Shown here one piece after another: positions 11,179 through 30,862 of a stretch of 32,158 nucleotides of DNA. This DNA is from a virus. Taxonomy: Duplodnaviria > Heunggongvirae > Uroviricota > Caudoviricetes. A program made the translations under genes and the position numbers. Under the pieces are notes generated by a model. That model saw only the letters and a list, made by a program, of their open reading frames with translations, searched no databases and was not told where the DNA came from. Where the stretch lies: positions 1 to 32,158 of IMG/VR virus record IMGVR_UViG_2529292726_000025. One strand, written 5' to 3'. Each line of letters begins with the position of its first letter. Within the stretch, counting starts at the first letter, position 1.

Positions 11179-11525
11179 GGGTGAGAGTCTATATCGCCGG
11201 TCCAATGACCGGGTATAAAAATTTCAACCGTGAGGCGTTCCACAATGCGGAAGAGGAACTGAAACGGGAAGGGCATACCGTCTTAAACCCGGCAGTACTT
11301 CCGGACGGGCTGACACAGCCGCAGTACATGGATATCTGCATGGCAATGATACGCAGCGTGGATGCGATTTATATGCTGAAAGACTGGCAACGGTCAGCAG
11401 GCGCTAAAGCGGAACTGGCTCTGGCGGAGAAACTGGGGCATGTGGTTATTTTTCAGAGGGGGGCGATATGCCGATTCTCTGGCTTCAGGAGGTGTGGGAA
11501 AAAGAAATGTGGGAAGGTCTTGTGA
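11175..11525 (+). CDS. Conserved prophage protein (DUF4406 / nucleoside 2-deoxyribosyltransferase-like N-terminal motif VYIAGPMTG), 116 aa
   Basis: GTG start 8 nt after AGGAGG. N-terminal RVYIAGPMTGYKNFNREAF motif. The C-terminal tail is basic and odd, and overlaps a possible small membrane ORF (11468-11617). Confidence 0.4.
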   Translation: MRVRVYIAGPMTGYKNFNREAFHNAEEELKREGHTVLNPAVLPDGLTQPQYMDICMAMIRSVDAIYMLKDWQRSAGAKAELALAEKLGHVVIFQRGAICRFSGFRRCGKKKCGKVL

Positions 11526-12119: not shown

Positions 12120-12410
12120 CCTGGCCGGAGGCATTCACAACGACAGGAATTGCAATGGCGGCAGCACTTGTTGTGTATTCGATTTGCCGCTGGGGATAAA
12201 AACGGTTTGCAGTGAAAGGGGAGTTAAGTAGAATTGCTGCGGGTGCTTGAGGCTATCTGCCTCAGGCATGAACACCAAAAGGCAGATAGAGAAAAGCCCC
12301 AGTTAACATTACGCGTCCTGCAAGACGCTTAACATTAATCTGAGGCCCAATCTATGTCTCACAAATGTAGGTTAGCCTCTTACGTGCCGAAAGGCAAGGA
12401 GAAGCAGGCT

Positions 12411-12566
12411 ATGAAGCAGCAAAAGGCGATGTTAATCGCCCTTATCGTCATCTGTTTAACCGTCATAGTGACGGCACTGGTAACGAGGAAAGACCTCTGC
12501 GAGGTACGAATCCGAACCGGCCAGACGGAGGTCGCTGTCTTCACAGCTTACGAACCTGAGGAGTAA
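12411..12566 (+). CDS. hok: Hok/Gef-family type I toxin (membrane peptide), 51 aa
   Basis: MKQQKAMLIALIVICLTVIVTALVTRKDLCEVRIRTGQTEVAVFTAYEPEE is a canonical Hok-family sequence with a single transmembrane helix. An in-frame upstream extension to 12354 exists. Confidence 0.8.
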   Translation: MKQQKAMLIALIVICLTVIVTALVTRKDLCEVRIRTGQTEVAVFTAYEPEE

Positions 12567-15263: not shown

Positions 15264-16018
15264 ATGGAAGAACAGCACGGTAATTACTTTATAAAACGAA
15301 TTCAGTTGATTGGAAGGGGTGCATTTGGCTTTGTTGAACACGTTAAGGTTTACAACCTCAACAAGGGTGAATGTGGGGATTATGCTAGAAAGGTGAAAAA
15401 CCAGAGCTTTTGGCGCAAATAGAGCAGTTTAGAAGGCGTTTTAAAAGGGAGGTCGTGTATCAATCACATTGCGTACATAGCAATATTGTTCCTATTTATT
15501 TGTGCGATTTGTTTGCCGAGAATCCATGGTTCATTATGGATAAAGCAGAATGTGATCTTGAGCACGAAATAACGAACAACCTTCTTACAACAGATCAAAA
15601 AATTTCAATAGTGAAAATGGTATTAGATGGTGTAGCTCACATCCATGCGAAAGGCTATTTACACAGAGATATAAAACCATTTAATGTCTTGCGATTTAGC
15701 GACGGAACATACAAGGTGTCTGATTTTGGTCTGGTAAAAGATACAAATCCCGAAGGGGATACCACTAAATTGACCGAGATCGGTACCCGTATGGGAAGTA
15801 CAAGATATATGGCTCCCGAGATTTTATATAATGCCGAGTATTCAGTTAAGACTGATGTTTATGCGGTGGGGCGGTTAATTGAGGACTTAAATTTAGATGA
15901 TAAAAAAATAAAGCCTATCATAGCGAAGTGTACCAGGATGGATAAAGATGATAGATATCAGACAATAGATGATGTGGCGTTTGATTTTGTGCATTCTTTT
16001 TTAAGGAGTGAGTCATGA
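15264..16018 (+). CDS. Hanks-type (eukaryotic-like) Ser/Thr protein kinase, interrupted by a -1 frameshift in an A5 run (15396-15400)
   Basis: Glycine loop IGRGAFGFV, beta-3 lysine YARKVK, catalytic loop HRDIKPFN, DFG (VSDFGL) and APE (YMAPEIL). The N-lobe fragment 15264-15422 and catalytic fragment 15410-16018 are in different frames. Confidence 0.8.
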
Positions 16019-16758
16019 TTCAGCTGATAGCGACTTCATCATTCTCGTATCCAAAAGAACCAGGTAGGGTCAACGAAGATTCATTGCTTCCTCCCAAAAT
16101 TGTAGGGGATGGCATCTTATTTGCCGTAGCTGATGGTGTAGGTTCATACACTGGTGCCAGTCAGGCTTCATCAATGGCAATTGCTGAACTTTCAGCATTG
16201 ACAAGCTTATCTTTTGACACAGTTCCGGATGTATTTGATGAAGTTAAGCGAAAGGTTATGTCGTTAGCTGATGTTAATGATGAGTTCGATAAAGCTGCTA
16301 CTACACTTACGTTTTGTTATGTTTGTGATAGCGGAATTATTATTGGTCATATTGGTGATTGTCGTTTGTATTGCATTGGAGAGAAGAAAGCATACCAATT
16401 GACGAAGGACGATACCAGGCATCAGATGCTAATTGATCAGAATATTTTTAAACCCAGAGATTTGAAGGATAAACCGGGCAAAAATATCTTAACGACGGCT
16501 ATAGCCTCAAATGTTGATATGGAATACGACTGTGATTTTATCACATGGAAAGATTTACCTAGTATTAACGGGGTATATCATCTGTGTATCATGTCTGATG
16601 GGGTTCATAACGTTTGGGAAAAACGCCCCAGATTTACATCAAATACGATGAGTAATAGTCAGAAGTTTTCTAATGGCATTTTGCGTCGTATAGAGAGAGC
16701 CGGACCTGATGATGACTTTTCTTTAGTAAGTATAATGGTGCGTGTGACGTCAGATTAG
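16015..16758 (+). CDS. PP2C-family (PPM) Ser/Thr protein phosphatase, 247 aa
   Basis: PPM motifs NEDS, FAVADGVGS, HIGDCRLY, MSDGV and PDDDFS. ATGA start/stop overlap with the kinase indicates translational coupling. Confidence 0.8.
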   Translation: MIQLIATSSFSYPKEPGRVNEDSLLPPKIVGDGILFAVADGVGSYTGASQASSMAIAELSALTSLSFDTVPDVFDEVKRKVMSLADVNDEFDKAATTLTFCYVCDSGIIIGHIGDCRLYCIGEKKAYQLTKDDTRHQMLIDQNIFKPRDLKDKPGKNILTTAIASNVDMEYDCDFITWKDLPSINGVYHLCIMSDGVHNVWEKRPRFTSNTMSNSQKFSNGILRRIERAGPDDDFSLVSIMVRVTSD

Positions 16759-17325: not shown

Positions 17326-17820
17326 ATGACTAATACTGTAAAAATATCCAGTTGTGAGTTAATCAACGCTGATTGCCTGAAATTTATCCAGACCTTACCG
17401 GAAAACTCTGTCGATCTGATAGTCACAGACCCGCCATACTTTAAAGTGAAGCCCGAGGGCTGGGATAACCAGTGGGAGGGCGACGATGATTACCTGAAAT
17501 GGCTGGACCAGTGTCTGGCGCAGTTCTGGCGGGTACTGAAGCCTGCCGGAAGTCTTTACCTGTTCTGTGGTCATCGCCTGGCATCTGACACCGAAATCAT
17601 GATGCGTGAGCGCTTTAATGTGCTGAACCACATTATCTGGGCGAAGCCGTCCGGACGCTGGAACGGGTGCAATAAGGAAAGTCTGCGGGCGTATTTTCCG
17701 GCAACAGAGCGCATTCTGTTTGCAGAACATTATCGGCACCATTCAAACATCTCCCCAAGTCTACTAAAGTCTTTCAAAACCCCTTATAATCCGCGTATTA
17801 AAGCCCCGTTCGTCTTTTGA
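17326..17820 (+). pseudogene. DNA N6-adenine (or N4-cytosine) methyltransferase, DPPY-first type, 3'-truncated at about 17750
   Basis: N-terminal motif IV LIVTDPPYF and conserved core through ERILFAE. The C-terminal AdoMet-binding FxGxG region is absent; the last 20 or so codons are junk-like and span a 23-bp direct repeat. Confidence 0.65.
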
Positions 17821-17906: not shown

Positions 17907-19121
17907 GTGAAACTCAATGCCCGTCAAATAGACACAGCCAAGCCAAAAGAGAAGGCTTACAAGCTGGCCGATGGTGGCGGTTTGTATCTCTTGGTAAAAC
18001 CTAATGGAGGTAAATACTGGCGACTTAAATATCGTGTAGCTGGTAAAGAGAAGCTATTGGCACTAGGTGTTTATCCTGAGGTTACTCTAGCCGATGCTCG
18101 GGCAAAACGTGAAGATGCGAAAAGAGGTATCGCTGGTGGTATCGATCCGATGGAAGCGAAACGAGAGGAAAAGATTGCCCGGGAAACGCAGTTAAACAAC
18201 ACCTTCAAAGATATTGCCATTGAGTGGCACAGCAGCAAATTAAAAAAATGGTCTGCTGGTTATGCTTCAGACATCCTCGAAGCCTTCAACAAAGATGTGT
18301 TCCCTTACATTGGCAAAAAAACCATCGCCGAAATCAAACCACTTGAACTTCTGAATGTGCTGCGGCGCATCGAGGGGCGCGGTGCTACAGAAAAAGCCAA
18401 AAAAGTGAGGCAGCGGTGCGGGGAAGTTTTCCGCTATGCAATAGTCACTGGTCGCGCAGAGTATAACCCTGCACCAGACCTTACTAGCGCGATGCAAGGC
18501 CATGAATCTAATCATTACCCTTTCCTTACAGCCAAAGAATTACCTGATTTTTTCAAGGCATTGTCCAGTTACTCAGGAAGCGCATTGGTTGTTATGGCGG
18601 CTCGTCTACTGATTATCACAGGCTTGCGGACTGGCGAACTACGTGGCGCATTATGGGATGAAATTGATTTCAACAAGGCTCTCTGGGAGATACCCGCTTC
18701 ACGTATGAAAATGCGGCGGCCTCATATTGTGCCATTGTCTGAGCAGGCTCTTTCGCTTATTGGGAAGATTAGAGAAATAACAGGCAATTACCCTCTTATG
18801 TTTCCCGGGCGCAATGATCCAAGGAAAACAATGAGCGAGGCCAGCATAAACCAAGTGTTTAAGCGCATTGGCTACGCTGGACGTGTAACTGGTCATGGGT
18901 TCCGGCACACTATGAGTACGATTTTGCATGAGCAGGGCTATAACACCGCGTGGATAGAAACGCAGCTCGCTCACGTTGATAAGAACTCAATTCGTGGCAC
19001 ATACAACCATGCGCAATATCTGGATGGAAGGCGGGAGATGCTTCAATGGTATGCCGACTATATGGATTCTCTCGAGCATAGCGGAAATGTGGTGCATATG
19101 GTGTTTGAAAAACACGCATGA
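17907..19121 (+). CDS. P4-type tyrosine integrase, 404 aa
   Basis: GTG start after a GGAGG Shine-Dalgarno. P4-like N-terminus (KAYKLADGGGLYLLVKPNGGKYWRLKYR) and catalytic R..HxxR..Y (RTGELRGALWDEIDF; HGFRHTMST; RGTYNHAQY). Confidence 0.9.
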   Translation: MKLNARQIDTAKPKEKAYKLADGGGLYLLVKPNGGKYWRLKYRVAGKEKLLALGVYPEVTLADARAKREDAKRGIAGGIDPMEAKREEKIARETQLNNTFKDIAIEWHSSKLKKWSAGYASDILEAFNKDVFPYIGKKTIAEIKPLELLNVLRRIEGRGATEKAKKVRQRCGEVFRYAIVTGRAEYNPAPDLTSAMQGHESNHYPFLTAKELPDFFKALSSYSGSALVVMAARLLIITGLRTGELRGALWDEIDFNKALWEIPASRMKMRRPHIVPLSEQALSLIGKIREITGNYPLMFPGRNDPRKTMSEASINQVFKRIGYAGRVTGHGFRHTMSTILHEQGYNTAWIETQLAHVDKNSIRGTYNHAQYLDGRREMLQWYADYMDSLEHSGNVVHMVFEKHA

Positions 19122-19772
19122 AACAACTGGACAAGTATACAGAGGTTTACTAAAGTATAGGGGAGTAGATTGATAAAAACTCACAGAGGATTACTATTTA
19201 ACAGTTAGCCCTGGAGAAGGGCAATCGCTCTTTTAACAACGAAGATGGAATCTTCTACGCAGCTGAAAAGCTGGATGCTCTTTAACAGCCTTTGGTGCTT
19301 TCCTGATGCAGGAAAGAATAGGGATACATGCACCTTTACAATGCATGTAATGATTCATCCATGAGGCTGCGGATCGCTGACAAAGCGCAATTGCTCTTTA
19401 ACATTGATGTGGGCGGGATGGTTCGTCCCGCAGTGACCGATAGATTTCTATCGGGAAACATACAATGATTCAAATATGAATCTACGGCGCTGACAAAGCG
19501 CAATTGCTCTCTTGCCTGCCCACCATGCCCTGAAAAAGGGCGTTCTTTAAAACTACTGGATGTCACGCCTAATAGCGTGATCCTGCCGAAATGCAGGGTA
19601 GCTCTACCCTTGTGGAGCAAACAAACCAAAACAATCTGACTATCTTTTATAAAAGACCGCAATATGTTTTTCATATTGTGGTCTTTGGCGTATTCGACAT
19701 TTGATGCAAATAAAACTCTCGCCATTCGTTGCAGGAGGGAGTTATTGCGTCATTAGTACAGGATATTAATAA

Positions 19773-19976
19773 ATGGCTAATTACAATTCATTAATTCGTC
19801 TCTCTGAAGTTCAAAGGCGAACTGGTTATAGCAAAGCATGGATTTATCGTCTTATTAGTCAGGGGAGGTTCCCTAAACAGGTAAAAATTGGAAGTCGGGC
19901 AATTGCTTTTGTTGAGTCTGAAATAGATGAATGGATTGAGAAGTGTATATTAGAATCTAGAGACGAGGTGGCCTGA
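19773..19976 (+). CDS. alpA: AlpA-family transcriptional regulator / excisionase-like protein, 67 aa
   Basis: LIRLSEVQRRTGYSKAWIYRLISQGRFPKQVKIGSRAIAFVESEIDEWI is a typical AlpA/Xis MerR-like HTH. Downstream of a P4-type int. Confidence 0.8.
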   Translation: MANYNSLIRLSEVQRRTGYSKAWIYRLISQGRFPKQVKIGSRAIAFVESEIDEWIEKCILESRDEVA

Positions 19977-21428: not shown

Positions 21429-22288
21429 CCGTCCAGAAGAAGACATTTTCACTGGCTGGTATGTCGCCAAAATCCAGCAATATGACGGCAAAGTCAGGCA
21501 TTAATACAGCAGATGCAAGCAAAGTTTATCATTTGCTGGTGGTCGGAACGGATGCCTTAACCATATCAGAAATCTCGGGCGATGATATTAGCATTGAGAA
21601 GGTCAGCGGCTGCGCCAGAAAATTTCTGGTCGTAGATGATGTCTTCCGCTCGTGTAGTGACTCCACAAAAACATTCGTCCACGCGCGTGACGTTAACGAA
21701 ATGAGCGCGATGTACTGTGCATCTGGTGCTTCCAATAGCGAGTTTTCGGAGTCCATAAAAAAGAGCTTGCCGTTATGCGGCAACACGGTTTATGGTTATA
21801 AGGCACCTCATAAAACGGGTGCCGGGATTGGCGTCCTGGTAAATCGAATGGCGACATATGACGCGCCGAGCGTCTTTTTTTATGTCGTAGGTCTGACTCA
21901 CCCATTTTTTGGGCGTTGGTGTATAATCCAGCGCCTTTGTCAATCAATGGTGGCTCAGGCAGGGGCTTCTTCGGAAGCGCCGGTATCCATTCGAGCCGGT
22001 TACGCCAACCCTGTCTGGGCTACCACCAGCGAAATTGGCGTTTCCGGTGGTAGCGTTACATGCTATCGAATGGAGGCTGCCACATGCTGGCTACTACCCC
22101 TACCCAAAAACCGCAATTTATCTGGATTATCGCCGCAGTTCGCCGCAGTTCGCCGCGATTGCCCGACAATTACCGCCAAAATTCATCATATTGCTGCCGA
22201 GTCTGAACGCGATGCTCGCCGTTCTCTGGTGCGCGATCACGTCTGCTTTTTTGCTGGTCGTATCCGCATGGAGGTGGCACATGATTAA
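21422..22288 (+). CDS. Hypothetical satellite-element protein, 288 aa, containing a tandem DNA repeat
   Basis: Long ORF in the operon. Contains the 10-bp tandem duplication cgccgcagtt at 22133-22160. Confidence 0.4.
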
Positions 22289-27112: not shown

Positions 27113-27286
27113 ATGGCTATTTCAGTAAAGCCAGTATTGATAAGTGAGAAGCAAATGGAAGCGATAAAGAAAATTCAGGAGGAGCAGCGTAAAAAATCAG
27201 AGGTAGGAGTTGCGCCAACGATCCACGAAATTGCTCGGGGATTAATGGATAAGGCGCTGGCTTACACTTTAACTGGACGTGGGTAA
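27113..27286 (+). CDS. Small putative ribbon-helix-helix-like DNA-binding protein, 57 aa (below the ORF-track cutoff)
   Basis: Manual translation: MAISVKPVLISEKQMEAIKKIQEEQRKKSEVGVAPTIHEIARGLMDKALAYTLTGRG. Shine-Dalgarno AAGGGGG 5 nt upstream. First gene after the terminator and an AT-rich promoter-like region. Confidence 0.45.
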   Translation: MAISVKPVLISEKQMEAIKKIQEEQRKKSEVGVAPTIHEIARGLMDKALAYTLTGRG

Positions 27287-27290
27287 ATCA

Positions 27291-28757
27291 ATGGCTACGT
27301 GGCAACAGGGTATTAATTCTGGTGGTTTTCTGGCTGGCATCGGTACGCAAAATGAGAATGCGCCAAAGGCAAGCGACATTAACGCAACGCTTGGTCTGAT
27401 CCGCGAAAACAATGAACTGGCTCGCTCAGGTGCAAATAACGTTGGTCTGACCGCGTTACGTGGTCTGGCTGGAGTTGCTGATATTTATAAGCAGCAGCAA
27501 CAGCAGGAGCGTAAAGCGGCATTCCAGAAAGGTTATGCAGATGCTTATGCGTCCGGCGACAGGGAGCAGATGCGTAATCTTATTACAGCATTCCCAGAAG
27601 AGTTTGAGGAAGTCCGTAAAGGGATGAGTTATGTCGATGATGCTCAAAGGGATGATTATGGCAATCTGGCGCTCAAAGCACAGGTAGCCTCATCGCTTGG
27701 TCCGGGCGCATTTGGCAGGTTCATGATGGATAATGAGCAGGAGATGCGTCGTTTAGGTATCCCTCCAGAAACTATTGCTGAAATGCAGGTTAATGACCCG
27801 CAGGGCTTCCAGCATTTCGCAGGTAATCTGGCGCTGTTTTCTCTCGGTCATGAGAAGTATTTCGATATCAAAGATCAAATGGAAGGTCGGGATATTGAGC
27901 GCGGCGAGTTGGCAGAGACAATCCGCAGCAATCAGGCTGGCGAAGCACTTCAGGCGAGAGGGCAGGATATTAGCCGAGCAAATGCGTTAACGTCAGCATA
28001 TGCACCAACAGCAGCAATGCAGAATTACAATCAGTACGCTCAAATGTTAAAGGCGGATCCAGAGGGGGCGGCGGCATTTGCGGCAGCGGCTGGAATTAAT
28101 ACAAACGCCAAAAAATTAATGAGTGTTAGGGAAAACGATGATGGCACTGTCACAAAATACTACACAGACGGAAGTGAAGAGCAGGGAAAACTAAACCAGC
28201 CAATATCTGGAGATGGGTTTCGTCCAATAGCTTTGCCAACAGCTCAAAAGATCATGGAAAAGTCGCCAGAAGGGGCTAAAAAAGCTGCTGGATTTGCATA
28301 CAGAGTTAGGGATGCTCTTGATTCAATGGATACACTGAAAGGCCAGATTAGCCCACAGCGAGTGGCGATCATTAATAATGCTTTGGGTAATGGGACGCTG
28401 GCTAACTTAACGCTCAGCCCAACAGAGCAGCAATACGTTGTTAATGCTAATGACGCAATAATGGCAATACTCCGTCAGGAAACAGGGGCAGCTATCGTAC
28501 CTGCTGAAATGTCAAAATATTATCAAATGTATTTCCCTCAGCCTGGTGATTCCACAAAAACCATTGATACCAAGCGCCGGAAGATGGAAAACCAGTTCAA
28601 TTCGCTGAAAGCTGCTTCTGGTCGAGCTTATGATGCTTTGCGGGTTATTTCAGCAGTTGACAGAGGAACTTCTTCTTCGTCGCAGACATTGCCGCAATCT
28701 GAGCAGGTATCACAGCCAGCAGCCAGCAGTAACTTTTCTTCACTATGGGGTGATTAA
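27291..28757 (+). CDS. Large Gln/Ala-rich, predicted alpha-helical protein of unknown function, about 488 aa
   Basis: Long ORF (the track gives GTG 27279; ATG 27291 is more likely). No Walker, nuclease or other catalytic motif seen. Coupled to the downstream gene by a TAATG overlap. Confidence 0.6.
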   Translation: MATWQQGINSGGFLAGIGTQNENAPKASDINATLGLIRENNELARSGANNVGLTALRGLAGVADIYKQQQQQERKAAFQKGYADAYASGDREQMRNLITAFPEEFEEVRKGMSYVDDAQRDDYGNLALKAQVASSLGPGAFGRFMMDNEQEMRRLGIPPETIAEMQVNDPQGFQHFAGNLALFSLGHEKYFDIKDQMEGRDIERGELAETIRSNQAGEALQARGQDISRANALTSAYAPTAAMQNYNQYAQMLKADPEGAAAFAAAAGINTNAKKLMSVRENDDGTVTKYYTDGSEEQGKLNQPISGDGFRPIALPTAQKIMEKSPEGAKKAAGFAYRVRDALDSMDTLKGQISPQRVAIINNALGNGTLANLTLSPTEQQYVVNANDAIMAILRQETGAAIVPAEMSKYYQMYFPQPGDSTKTIDTKRRKMENQFNSLKAASGRAYDALRVISAVDRGTSSSSQTLPQSEQVSQPAASSNFSSLWGD

Positions 28758-30862
28758 TGGCTAAAGCATGGAAAGATGTTATCGCCTCTCCACAGTATCA
28801 GGCGTTAGCACCAGAACAAAAAACGCAGGCTCAGGAGCAATACTTCAACGAAGTCGTTGCCCCGCAAGCCGGAGAAAGTGTAGAGCAGGCTAAGCAGGCT
28901 TTTTATGCTGCCTATCCACTACCATCAACGAATGAAATAGACCGAGCCCAATCAGCAACTCAAAATATTCAACATACATCATCTGATAATTCTCTTGCGT
29001 CAGGGTATGCAAAGTTAGCGACTCAGCAAAGAGAGGGGCTTGAACGTTCAGCAGAACAGGGAGCCAGTCTTGGGGCTGCGATGCGCGATGCTATAACAGG
29101 CGAAAGCCGAATGACTCCAGAGATGGAGAGACTGCAAAATGTCGACCTTGCCCCAGAGTTAACCTCACTCAGCATGGATGCTCTAAAAGCTCGATGGTCT
29201 CAACTTTTCGGCTCTGACGCATCTCAGGAAAAGATTCTTCAGAGCATGGGAGCGAAATTAAGGCAGGATGAGAAGGGTAACACTATCGTTTCCCTACCAT
29301 CCGGTGATTATGCTCTGAACAAGCCGGGTTTATCACCGCAAGACGTGGCATCGTTTCTGGCTAATGCGCTGGCGTTTACACCAGCGGGCAGGACCGGAAC
29401 GGTGCTGGGGGCCATAGGGAAATCAGCAGCTACAGATTTAGCACTACAGGGAGCCACCAGCCTCGCTGGTGGAGAAGATATTGATCCGTTACAAACGGTA
29501 ATCTCTGCTGGCATTGGCGGCATTGGTAAGGGTCTGGAGAATACAGTGAGTGCCGTTTCGAGGGCCGTTCGCGGTGATATGGCACCGGAAGCGAAAGCCG
29601 CTGTTGATTTTGCATCGGAAAGAACCCTACCGTTAATGACCAGTGACGTACTGAAAGATAAAAACACTGTGCAGAGTCTGGCCCAGAAAACAGGCGAAAA
29701 AATTCCTTTTTTTGGAACGGGTACGAACAGGCTGAATCAACAACAGGCTCGGGAAAATCTGGTCAGAACATATAACGATGGTCTGGGAGGCATTTCAGAT
29801 AAACAGCTTTATGAGTCTGCTACTAAAGGGCAGCAAAAATTCATTGAGGCCGCAGGTAAGCGATATAACCGCATAATTGACGCTATGGGGGATACCCCTG
29901 TCGACCTATCAAACACGGTAAAAGCTATCGACAATCAGATTGCCGTGTTAAGCCGCCCGGGCAAATCTCAGGATAGAGCCGCGGTAAAAGTCTTGCAGCA
30001 ATTTAAAGACGATATCACCAGCGGACCCAATGACCTGCGTCTGGCGAGAGAAAACAGAACTGACCTTCGAAAGCGGTTCATGAATTCAAACGAGACTGTT
30101 GATAAAGACACGCTCCAGAAAGCCAGCGATATTGTCTACAAGGCATATACGCTGGATATGAGAAGGGCAGTAGCCCAGAAACTGGGTTCAGAAGAAGCAG
30201 CCAATATGGCAAGGGTTGATCGCTCATGGTCTAAATTCAATGACATGATGGGAAGAACGCGCGTTCAAAAGGCAATAGCCAGCGGCAAGGCCACGCCTGA
30301 GGATGTAACAAAACTCGTGTTTAGCCAAAGCCCATCAGAACGTTCTCAGCTTTACAGGCTTCTGGATGACAATGGTAGGCAAAACGCACGAGCAGCCATA
30401 GTTCAGAATGCTGTAGATAAGGCGACTGATCCGTCTGGAAATATCAGTGTTGAGAAGTTTATTAATGCGTTACACCGGAACAGGAAGCAATCAGCAACTT
30501 TCTTTAAAGGCGTGCACGGAAAGGAACTGGACGGCATTATTAAATACCTCAACGATACCAGACAGGCGGCAAAGGTTGACGGTCAGAAATTAAACAGCCA
30601 GAAACTTTATGGCCTGCTGGTTGGTGGAGGCGCTATAAATGCGGCAGTTCTGGCGGGGATGCTGAAAACGGCTGCGTTTGTTGTTCCTGCTGCTGGTGCT
30701 TTAGGCGGAGCAGCGAAGGCATACGAAAGCCCTGTTATACGAAATGCCTTATTACGTCTGGCAAATACGCCAAAAGGTAGCACAGCATATGACAGAGCGA
30801 TCAGTACAGTCACACAATCACTGACCACAGCAGCACAAGCATCGCAAAAGGAAGCTCAATAA
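28757..30862 (+). CDS. Large unknown-function protein with C-terminal glycine-zipper-like hydrophobic segment, 701 aa
   Basis: Long ORF. C-terminal LYGLLVGGGAINAAVLAGMLKTAAFVVPAAGALGGAAKAY is membrane-helix or glycine-zipper-like. Otherwise helical and Q/A/K-rich without catalytic motifs. Confidence 0.6.
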   Translation: MAKAWKDVIASPQYQALAPEQKTQAQEQYFNEVVAPQAGESVEQAKQAFYAAYPLPSTNEIDRAQSATQNIQHTSSDNSLASGYAKLATQQREGLERSAEQGASLGAAMRDAITGESRMTPEMERLQNVDLAPELTSLSMDALKARWSQLFGSDASQEKILQSMGAKLRQDEKGNTIVSLPSGDYALNKPGLSPQDVASFLANALAFTPAGRTGTVLGAIGKSAATDLALQGATSLAGGEDIDPLQTVISAGIGGIGKGLENTVSAVSRAVRGDMAPEAKAAVDFASERTLPLMTSDVLKDKNTVQSLAQKTGEKIPFFGTGTNRLNQQQARENLVRTYNDGLGGISDKQLYESATKGQQKFIEAAGKRYNRIIDAMGDTPVDLSNTVKAIDNQIAVLSRPGKSQDRAAVKVLQQFKDDITSGPNDLRLARENRTDLRKRFMNSNETVDKDTLQKASDIVYKAYTLDMRRAVAQKLGSEEAANMARVDRSWSKFNDMMGRTRVQKAIASGKATPEDVTKLVFSQSPSERSQLYRLLDDNGRQNARAAIVQNAVDKATDPSGNISVEKFINALHRNRKQSATFFKGVHGKELDGIIKYLNDTRQAAKVDGQKLNSQKLYGLLVGGGAINAAVLAGMLKTAAFVVPAAGALGGAAKAYESPVIRNALLRLANTPKGSTAYDRAISTVTQSLTTAAQASQKEAQ

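Follow-up and report, generated by a model that had tools for sequence, protein, structure and literature searches.

Orphan nut sites of several specificities between int and alpA of a phage satellite: a candidate sensor of helper-phage N

The viral record IMGVR_UViG_2529292726_000025 (Caudoviricetes; 32,158 nt, the whole of which is called the window here) carries a P4-like satellite of the phage-inducible chromosomal island (PICI) type, in which a 651-nt spacer (19122-19772) separates the integrase gene int from the activator gene alpA. Our analysis suggests that this spacer probably encodes an untranslated leader of about 600 nt with a tandem array of lambdoid nut sites, through which the N protein of a helper phage would turn on alpA. 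Judged by their sequences, the boxB hairpins of the array appear to cover at least three N specificity classes (lambda, P22/933W and HK620-type), and possibly others. The sites are orphan nut sites: no homologue of N was detected among the genes downstream (alpA, a 143-aa open reading frame (ORF) and antA/B). The comparisons described below establish what the elements are by sequence, that they are biased to one strand, that the array has evolved by modules and that such arrays are present in orthologous satellites.

A tandem nut array on the alpA-sense strand

The motif GCTCTTTAACA, which recurs in the spacer, corresponds in sequence to the boxA element of nut sites, for which a gamma-proteobacterial BoxA consensus GYTCTTTAANA has been defined (PMC5725501); the boxA of rrn leaders is UGCUCUUUA, followed by ACAA, and that of lambda is CGCUCUUA (PMC2724277). 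Perfect matches to the consensus occur at 19277, 19393 and 19542, all on the + strand and within 19277-19552, against 0.28 expected for both strands of the whole 32-kb window, and none of 100 shuffles reached three. GCTCTTTAACA itself is present in two exact copies (19277 and 19393), the sole matches with at most one mismatch on either strand of the window. The first-pass annotation, made from the letters of the window alone, had listed three copies: that at 19277 is exact, that at 19227 carries an additional T (GCTCTTTTAACA), and that placed at about 19396 actually lies 3 nt away, at 19393. Its direct repeat at about 19376 and 19488 is also present, with a length of 23 nt rather than 22 (exact copies at 19375-19397 and 19488-19510). 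This repeat is prolonged upstream imperfectly (19344-19372 versus 19459-19487, 72%) and carries the P22-type boxB GCGCUGACAAAGCGC, a sequence given in PMC11480772. The elements of the spacer, from the int stop codon to alpA, are as follows.

19128-19156, + strand: promoter-like TGGACA-17-TAAAGT directly after the int stop codon; predicted leader start (consensus scan)
19192-19203, + strand: degenerate boxA-like TACTATTTAACA, preceding the lambda-like boxB hairpin 19208-19222
19208-19222, + strand: lambda-like boxB GCCCU-GGAGA-AGGGC, whose GGAGA loop fits the G-N-R-N-A pattern
19226-19273, + strand: element with boxA CGCTCTTTTAACAA (one extra T), then hairpins 19241-19255 and 19260-19273
19241-19255, + strand: hairpin with A-U as its fifth stem pair, G-C in relatives
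19260-19273, + strand: hairpin CAGCU-GAAA-AGCUG, with an A-U pair changing to U.G; owing to a 1-nt indel, the 428-nt variants have a P22-type GACAA loop here
19276-19287, + strand: boxA TGCTCTTTAACA, a perfect BoxA consensus that also matches rrn boxA
19298-19316 and 19325-19349, + strand: two hairpins without an assigned phage type, after boxA 19276-19287 (element 19276-19349)
19374-19388, + strand: P22/933W-type boxB copy 1, TCGCTGACAAAGCGC (GCGCTGACAAAGCGC in two 651-nt relatives), 14/15 match
19392-19412, + strand: boxA TGCTCTTTAACA plus spacer, homologous to HK620/phi21-type nutL
19413-19431 and 19437-19454, + strand: hairpins after boxA plus spacer 19392-19412 (element 19392-19454)
19457-19504, + strand: segment homologous to 933W/H-19B nutL, comprising a spacer hairpin (19467-19482) and an exact P22-type boxB GCGCTGACAAAGCGC (19487-19501)
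19505-19541, + strand: element with degenerate boxA TGCTCTCTT and a 13-nt spacer, then the lambda nutR boxB
19527-19541, + strand: exact lambda nutR boxB GCCCTGAAAAAGGGC, 15/15 match; module confined to 651-nt variants
19542-19552, + strand: consensus boxA GTTCTTTAAAA, in the core module common to all E. coli variants
19564-19579, + strand: hairpin CACGC-CUAAUA-GCGUG of the core module (19542-19597), which recalls the phi21 hexaloop CUAACC and is without a phage counterpart
19582-19597, + strand: HK620-type boxB CCUGC-CGAAAU-GCAGG, in the core module common to all E. coli variants
19652-19686, + strand: 15-bp hairpin (dG -20.8 kcal/mol), then UUUGGCGUAUU; candidate terminator between array and alpA

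All boxA and boxB motifs lie on the alpA-sense strand, with none on the minus strand and none elsewhere in the window. Three boxB hairpins with N-specific loops (19527-19541, 19487-19501 and 19582-19597) accompany the three consensus boxA copies. The first reproduces the lambda nutR boxB, published as 5'-agcccugaaaaagggc-3' (PMC2724277). The second belongs to the segment 19457-19504, which is identical at 45 of 48 positions (94%) to many Shiga toxin (Stx) and lambdoid phages, including the annotated nutL of 933W; the match overlaps features annotated 'nutL' in AF125520 and GQ499361, and in O157 prophages the same segment has the immunity genes on one side and a P22-like N gene on the other. 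P22/933W-type boxB copy 1 sits in the first arm of the 23-nt direct repeat.

The third hairpin differs from its phage form by one compensatory C-G to U-A change in the stem. The phage form CCYGCCGAAATGCRGG was recovered at 116 sites in 77 viral loci, with a boxA no more than 45 nt upstream at 96 of the 116 sites, and 39 of the 77 loci have two outward-facing copies 1.15-3.0 kb apart, which is the nutL/nutR geometry around an immunity region. It constitutes the nutL of HK620, HK630, HK140, mEpX2, CUS-3, N7, HZ41 and some Stx phages, several of whose records label it 'putative Nut boxA site', and an annotated N gene follows it in Erwinia phage vB_EhrS_49. On these sequence grounds—nutL/nutR geometry, adjacent boxA and N gene downstream—the HK620-type boxB is validated as a phage nut element. 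No other AlpA satellites were found among these viral loci. The boxA plus spacer at 19392-19412 in turn shares 20 of 21 positions with the nutL leader of vB_EhrS_49, upstream of that N gene, and also resembles phi21 boxA-L; the Erwinia phage was the one informative match in phage BLAST searches with short modules, the rest being noise.

In a lambdoid nut site a short spacer of about 8-15 nt is expected between boxA and boxB. Here it measures 13 nt from the degenerate boxA at 19505 to the boxB at 19527; before the HK620-type boxB it is 29 nt, and before P22-type copy 2 about 83 nt, with hairpins intervening in both of the longer spacers. The annotated nutL of 933W has a total length of 67 nt. 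Several boxB hairpins end 3 nt before the next boxA. Folding of the spacer gives -206 kcal/mol (z -7.8) for the + strand versus -192 kcal/mol (z -5.2) for the minus strand, and the folded + strand forms a chain of local hairpins.

Modular evolution and coding potential of the spacer

Comparison with related elements, proposed in the first-pass annotation, reveals same-strand arrays in E. coli variants as well as in orthologous satellites. We compiled 13 distinct E. coli versions of the spacer from E. coli chromosomes together with viral and metagenome contigs; most of those with a recovered left flank lie at a tRNA-Thr 3' end. Their spacers measure 391/392, 427/428 or 651 nt, and the differences correspond to whole boxA+hairpin modules. 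Within the modules, stems change in a pair-preserving manner: G-C to A-U at 19241-19255, A-U to U.G at 19260-19273, and, in the 391-nt variants L007 and L130, G-C to U.G in their P22-type boxB. The U.G substitutions are compatible with + strand RNA only. A 1-nt indel decides whether one hairpin has the P22-type loop GACAA or the loop GAAA. The GGAGA hairpin carries one uncompensated stem mutation in two variants, which suggests that it is less constrained. From an evenly spaced sample of the 664 matching genomes among 5426 complete E. coli genomes, we estimate that the satellite-type spacer is present in about 280-300 of the 5426, the 651-nt form being found in 29; the remaining E. coli matches are nutL of resident prophages.

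RefSeq places a 129-aa 'hypothetical protein' (WP_225389441.1) on the minus strand at 19336-19725, across the nut array. We rejected this ORF as coding: relatives differ by a 224-nt indel, and the longest stop-free stretch across the region falls from 137 codons here to 76-85 in relatives, in which no gene is annotated there. With no conservation in the 391- and 427-nt variants, it is probably a spurious call, and the earlier description of the spacer as non-coding holds. A free-standing small RNA, also suggested at that stage, finds no backing in Rfam, as no family matched the spacer in gathering-threshold or E-value searches. The accompanying guess that the spacer is regulatory, possibly a control switch that senses the helper, fits the nut-element evidence.

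Candidate promoter and pre-alpA hairpin

In the promoter and terminator prediction that the first-pass annotation had envisaged, the consensus scan returned the promoter-like site at 19128-19156 and did not call the hairpin at 19652-19686 as a terminator. The promoter-like site is unchanged in the 13 E. coli variants; Pantoea (L011) has TGGAAA-17-TATATT at the equivalent position, and the Enterobacter and Yokenella arrays are also preceded by TGGACA. Between the array and the pre-alpA hairpin lies a C-rich, G-poor stretch. The hairpin itself combines a stable stem with an AU-rich middle and the weak tail UUUGGCGUAUU; it includes one G.U pair, which speaks for the + strand RNA.

Hairpins homologous to it (ACCGCA.AUG...CAU..UGUGG) lie ahead of alpA in Pantoea L011 (~2391-2414) and Enterobacter L019 (~713-735). 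Behind each comes a second hairpin, whose tail is U7 in L011 and a weaker U-rich stretch, UCUUUUGUU, in L019. Across genera, not only the pairing of the pre-alpA hairpin but also its sequence is conserved. It might therefore also be a palindrome to which a protein binds, for instance in AlpA autoactivation, rather than serving as a terminator alone.

Arrays in other genera

Clear orthologues of the satellite are present in Pantoea septica (L011) and Providencia alcalifaciens (L071), with Int at 61-63% and AlpA at 73-75% identity; the genes downstream are shared as well. In each of the two, a + strand boxA+hairpin array has a promoter-like site ahead of it and terminator-like hairpins between it and alpA. 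Same-strand arrays also occur at alpA loci of Enterobacter (L019) and Yokenella (L024), where AlpA is 75-79% identical; Int is 73% identical in Yokenella, and the Enterobacter locus contains no int. Terminator-like hairpins between array and alpA are found in Pantoea, Providencia and Enterobacter. The array loops in these genera are GAAAA, GAAGA or GAAA on differing stems, and the Enterobacter and Yokenella loci include the lambda-type loops ACCCU-GAAGA-AGGGU, GCGCU-GAAAA-AGCGC and GGCU-GAAAA-AGCC. Conservation of loops on varied stems is as predicted if N peptides recognise boxB.

A proposed route from helper N to alpA

N supplied in trans acts at any nut site that is transcribed, and each N protein recognises its own boxB specifically; for this reason, activation of alpA by helper N is the simplest reading of the array. 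We infer from the arrangement of the elements that the leader is transcribed, that transcription stops before alpA, and that read-through depends on N. In a quiescent cell, transcripts from the post-int promoter, or from int read-through, would end before alpA, either at the hairpin 19652-19686 or through Rho acting on the untranslated RNA. Upon induction of, or infection by, a lambdoid helper, its immediate-early N would bind the matching boxB on the nascent leader; with boxA motifs serving host NusB/NusE and boxB hairpins serving phage N proteins, N and the Nus factors at boxA would render RNA polymerase resistant to terminators. The polymerase would continue into alpA and along the unidirectional satellite operon, and, being processive, might also traverse the C4/CI-like RNA immunity region farther downstream and reach the replication genes; AlpA would then promote excision and replication. 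The serial boxB types would allow one satellite to answer several helper families.

This model agrees with published data on alpA induction: upstream regions of alpA confer helper-dependent, SOS-independent induction (PMC6092414; PMC11773190; bioRxiv 2022.09.08.507074), and the phage inducer of alpA has been described as unidentified (PMC6092414). Among phages, the injection protein of the satellite has its best matches in the podophages N7 and HZ41 (66% identity), both of which have the HK620-type nutL; this type of nut is in the core module of every E. coli variant, and the match provides a circumstantial link to the likely helpers. For the broader proposition—that the modular, multi-specificity orphan array is a broad sensor of lambdoid phages, with helper N as the inducer of alpA, possibly overriding RNA immunity, and with helper range evolving through gain and loss of boxA+boxB cassettes—we consider the chances about even.

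Points against the model and its lineage limits

Several observations weigh against helper N as the inducer. The geometry of the array is often non-canonical: several boxB hairpins are either 30-80 nt away from the closest boxA on their upstream side or immediately ahead of the next one, and the lambda boxB is paired with a degenerate boxA. Exact IMG/VR searches found no phage counterpart for the hairpins 19298-19316, 19413-19431 and 19564-19579 (19325-19349 and 19437-19454 were not searched), nor any phage nut matching the GGAGA hairpin 19208-19222; exact matches of these four are the satellites themselves or unrelated contexts. Both promoter and terminator are consensus-level predictions, and, as noted, the terminator scan passed over the hairpin 19652-19686. 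Part of the array could have been imported recently by recombination from Stx-like phages. Arrays were found in 4 of 80 AlpA loci from other species, strict boxA counts being near background elsewhere among distant AlpA loci, and many relatives, including close ones, have a DUF6387 gene between int and alpA instead of an array. Finally, no recognisable nut site is present in the int-alpA spacer of EcCICFT073, an element whose alpA is induced by lambda and phi80.

Because DUF6387 replaces the array in relatives and EcCICFT073 has no nut-like element, the nut array is specific to certain lineages. The idea of nut control for all PICIs was accordingly rejected, the EcCICFT073 spacer having iterated repeats only. 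In that element (L126, E. coli CFT073; 11185-11250 and 11440-11500) the repeats are of the GAAACAACG/GACACAAC kind (GAACAAC-type), which suggests a different, probably DNA-level, control. In a close relative with Int 97% identical (L031), a DUF6387 gene of about 295 aa (1416-2297) stands in place of the nut array, and Yokenella L024 has both an array and a DUF6387 gene (1419-2312). The int-alpA interval seems to be an exchangeable control zone.

Alternative explanations

The array might instead be a decoy, its leader RNA titrating helper N along with host NusB/NusE and so damping the helper's early genes as a form of interference or defence. Such a sponge would suit an RNA with many boxA and boxB elements of several specificities and no cognate N gene; boxA, once transcribed, is able to draw host factor away by competition, and interference with helpers is common among satellites. 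However, in five genera the array always lies directly upstream of alpA, on its sense strand and with a terminator-like hairpin between, and a single-copy leader from a modest promoter-like site would make a weak sponge; we regard a decoy as unlikely, noting that the decoy and alpA-control roles are compatible with each other. Antitermination of the rrn kind would dispense with N altogether: boxA would recruit host NusB/E/A/G-SuhB and shield leader and operon from Rho, or, in the converse form, the boxA complex would promote Rho termination as at suhB, neither form needing phage input. The boxA copies are indeed nearer the rrn/gamma-proteobacterial consensus than lambda's own boxA is, and the order of hairpin then boxA resembles rrn leaders. 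Yet this explanation, which we also judge improbable, accounts neither for exact lambda, P22 and HK620-type boxB hairpins nor for loops conserved across genera on varied stems, and one boxA would be enough for it.

The resemblance to phages could also reflect debris, that is, non-functional fragments of lambdoid pL-nutL/pR-nutR left by satellite-helper recombination and kept by chance. The 48-nt stretch 94% identical to Stx-phage nutL and the boxA+spacer segments resembling HK620-type nutL and nutR would be expected in that case, and the capture of genes from helpers is known for such satellites (PMC10111431). What makes it very unlikely in our assessment is that nut elements alone were kept, in a single orientation and with no N gene or operator fragments, that gain and loss affect whole modules and stem changes preserve pairing, and that independent, sequence-distinct arrays occur in five genera. 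The first-pass annotation had suggested possible regulator binding sites, with AlpA and the antirepressor-like protein as candidate binders; sites at the DNA level could serve AlpA, the integrase arm domains or the AntA/B-like protein. In favour of DNA-level control are the direct and inverted repeats of the spacer, the autoactivation by AlpA of its own promoter in EcCICFT073 (PMC6092414) and the sequence conservation across genera of the palindrome 19652-19686, which could be an operator. But the repeats match known RNA elements to the base, RNA is also indicated by the strand bias and by substitutions of the G.U type, and the arm sites of related elements flank attP rather than the 3' side of int (PMC10111431), so that DNA sites seem highly improbable and the motifs are better read as RNA-level nut elements on the alpA-sense strand. 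Several exact boxB types occur together, all on one strand and ahead of alpA, and such arrays recur in different genera; none of these alternatives accounts for this combination as well as helper-N antitermination does.

Genomic setting of the satellite

The window matches the chromosome of E. coli strain 510016 at 100%. Positions 1 to about 17,730 belong to a Rac-like lambdoid prophage adjoining ompW, and the satellite begins at about 17,730 and continues onward through the window. Its unidirectional order of int, alpA, a Bro/antirepressor zone and primase, without a full set of virion genes, is that of Gram-negative PICI/P4-like elements and fits the four-zone scheme of PMC10111431. After alpA come the 143-aa ORF (no Pfam match), an AntA/B-like protein and a DUF4222 protein; further satellite genes are an Icd-like gene, a TOPRIM/DUF927 primase (RefSeq annotation) and P22-like ejection proteins. 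Its annotated genes and RNAs around the spacer and the Icd-like gene are:

17907-19121, satellite: int, with Arm-DNA-bind_3, Phage_int_M and Phage_integrase domains (Pfam)
19773-19976, + strand: alpA, Phage_AlpA family (Pfam), the gene that the leader would enter; ribosome-binding site AGGA at 19760-19763
21803-21880: isrK RNA (Rfam match), inside the satellite, near the Icd-like gene
21943-22030: C4 antisense RNA (Rfam match), inside the satellite, near the Icd-like gene

Downstream of alpA and antA/B, isrK, C4 and the Icd-like gene together resemble the P4 CI-type RNA immunity module, which an N-modified polymerase coming from the leader might override. The P22-like DNA ejection/injection protein genes occupy 27279-30862.

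The satellite splits a DNA-methyltransferase gene of the Rac-like prophage (17326-17741, junction 17729-17741, and L001 36950-37700 beyond the window). It is inserted on the downstream side of the prophage's Q gene and oriented like late transcription. As the junction ATTATCGGCACCA mimics a tRNA-Thr 3' end, the usual site of relatives with a recovered left flank (thrW in the three annotated E. coli chromosomes), the satellite looks like a secondary-site insertion. Insertion into the prophage methyltransferase gene produces a 'helper-embedded' arrangement; the word 'methyltransferase' is absent from the main text of PMC10111431, which deals with helper-embedded PICIs. The prophage part also contains RalA (antitoxin small RNA of RalR; Rfam) and sok (Rfam), the latter adjoining hokD, covered by the intervals 1557-1735 and 12241-12416, and a pair of Ser/Thr protein kinase and PP2C phosphatase genes at 15410-16758, between Q and the split methyltransferase gene.

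Significance and comparison with known systems

That helper phages switch on alpA in Gram-negative PICI-type satellites has been known since 2018, and the signal is still unspecified in the papers of 2022-2025 consulted here. In the openly searchable literature, with subscription-only journals outside the search, we found no papers tying nut sites to satellites, PICIs or alpA, and the study of helper-embedded PICIs (PMC10111431) does not mention nut sites or N antitermination. Nut sites and N antitermination are classical; what appears new is their occurrence in a satellite as orphan sites of several specificities. The nut array before alpA offers a concrete and cheaply tested candidate signal for one widespread satellite family. 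If the model is correct, the satellite eavesdrops on the very first gene product of its helper by means of the helper's own RNA signal, a new mode of helper sensing by satellites; swappable RNA cassettes would account for a multi-helper range, and the arrays would represent natural multi-input antitermination parts for synthetic biology.

With lambda nutL/nutR and its N and NusA/B/E/G factors, the array shares boxA and a boxB hairpin on the transcribed strand, upstream of a terminator-like structure, including the exact nutR boxB GCCCUGAAAAAGGGC 13 nt after a boxA-like element (19505-19541); it differs in that the satellite lacks an N gene, pL/pR operators and a phage early operon, and in being tandem, of mixed specificities and directed into alpA. 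The nutL of the Stx phages H-19B/933W and of P22 (GACAA-loop boxB) is matched at 45 of 48 positions over the spacer hairpin and boxB, and its long boxA-boxB spacing with an intervening hairpin is repeated in the array; in contrast, the upstream boxA-like segment of the phages is not included in the satellite, where the boxB is duplicated and then followed by an rrn-type boxA. The HK620/HK140/mEpX2/CUS-3 type (CGAAAU-loop boxB) has an identical loop and a stem off by one compensatory pair, and the satellite's 20/21 boxA plus spacer match is to the nutL of vB_EhrS_49, a phage with this boxB type. In these phages the boxB follows boxA by 13-15 nt, whereas in the satellite the distance is 29 nt with an extra hairpin between, and the phages have a divergent nutL/nutR pair around the immunity region, unlike the satellite. 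Leader antitermination in rrn operons (boxA, Nus factors, SuhB) likewise uses an rrn-consensus boxA (UGCUCUUUAACA) in a long untranslated leader, but with one boxA and no phage-specific boxB hairpins. Other satellites, namely Staphylococcus aureus pathogenicity islands (SaPIs) through Stl and antirepressors, P4 through P2 Cox/Ogr, and EcCICFT073/EcCIMP1 through alpA induction, similarly couple their activation to an early helper product, with AlpA as a downstream master activator; the sensor proposed here differs from theirs in being an RNA element that would read an antiterminator, rather than a repressor-protein interaction or a promoter activator.
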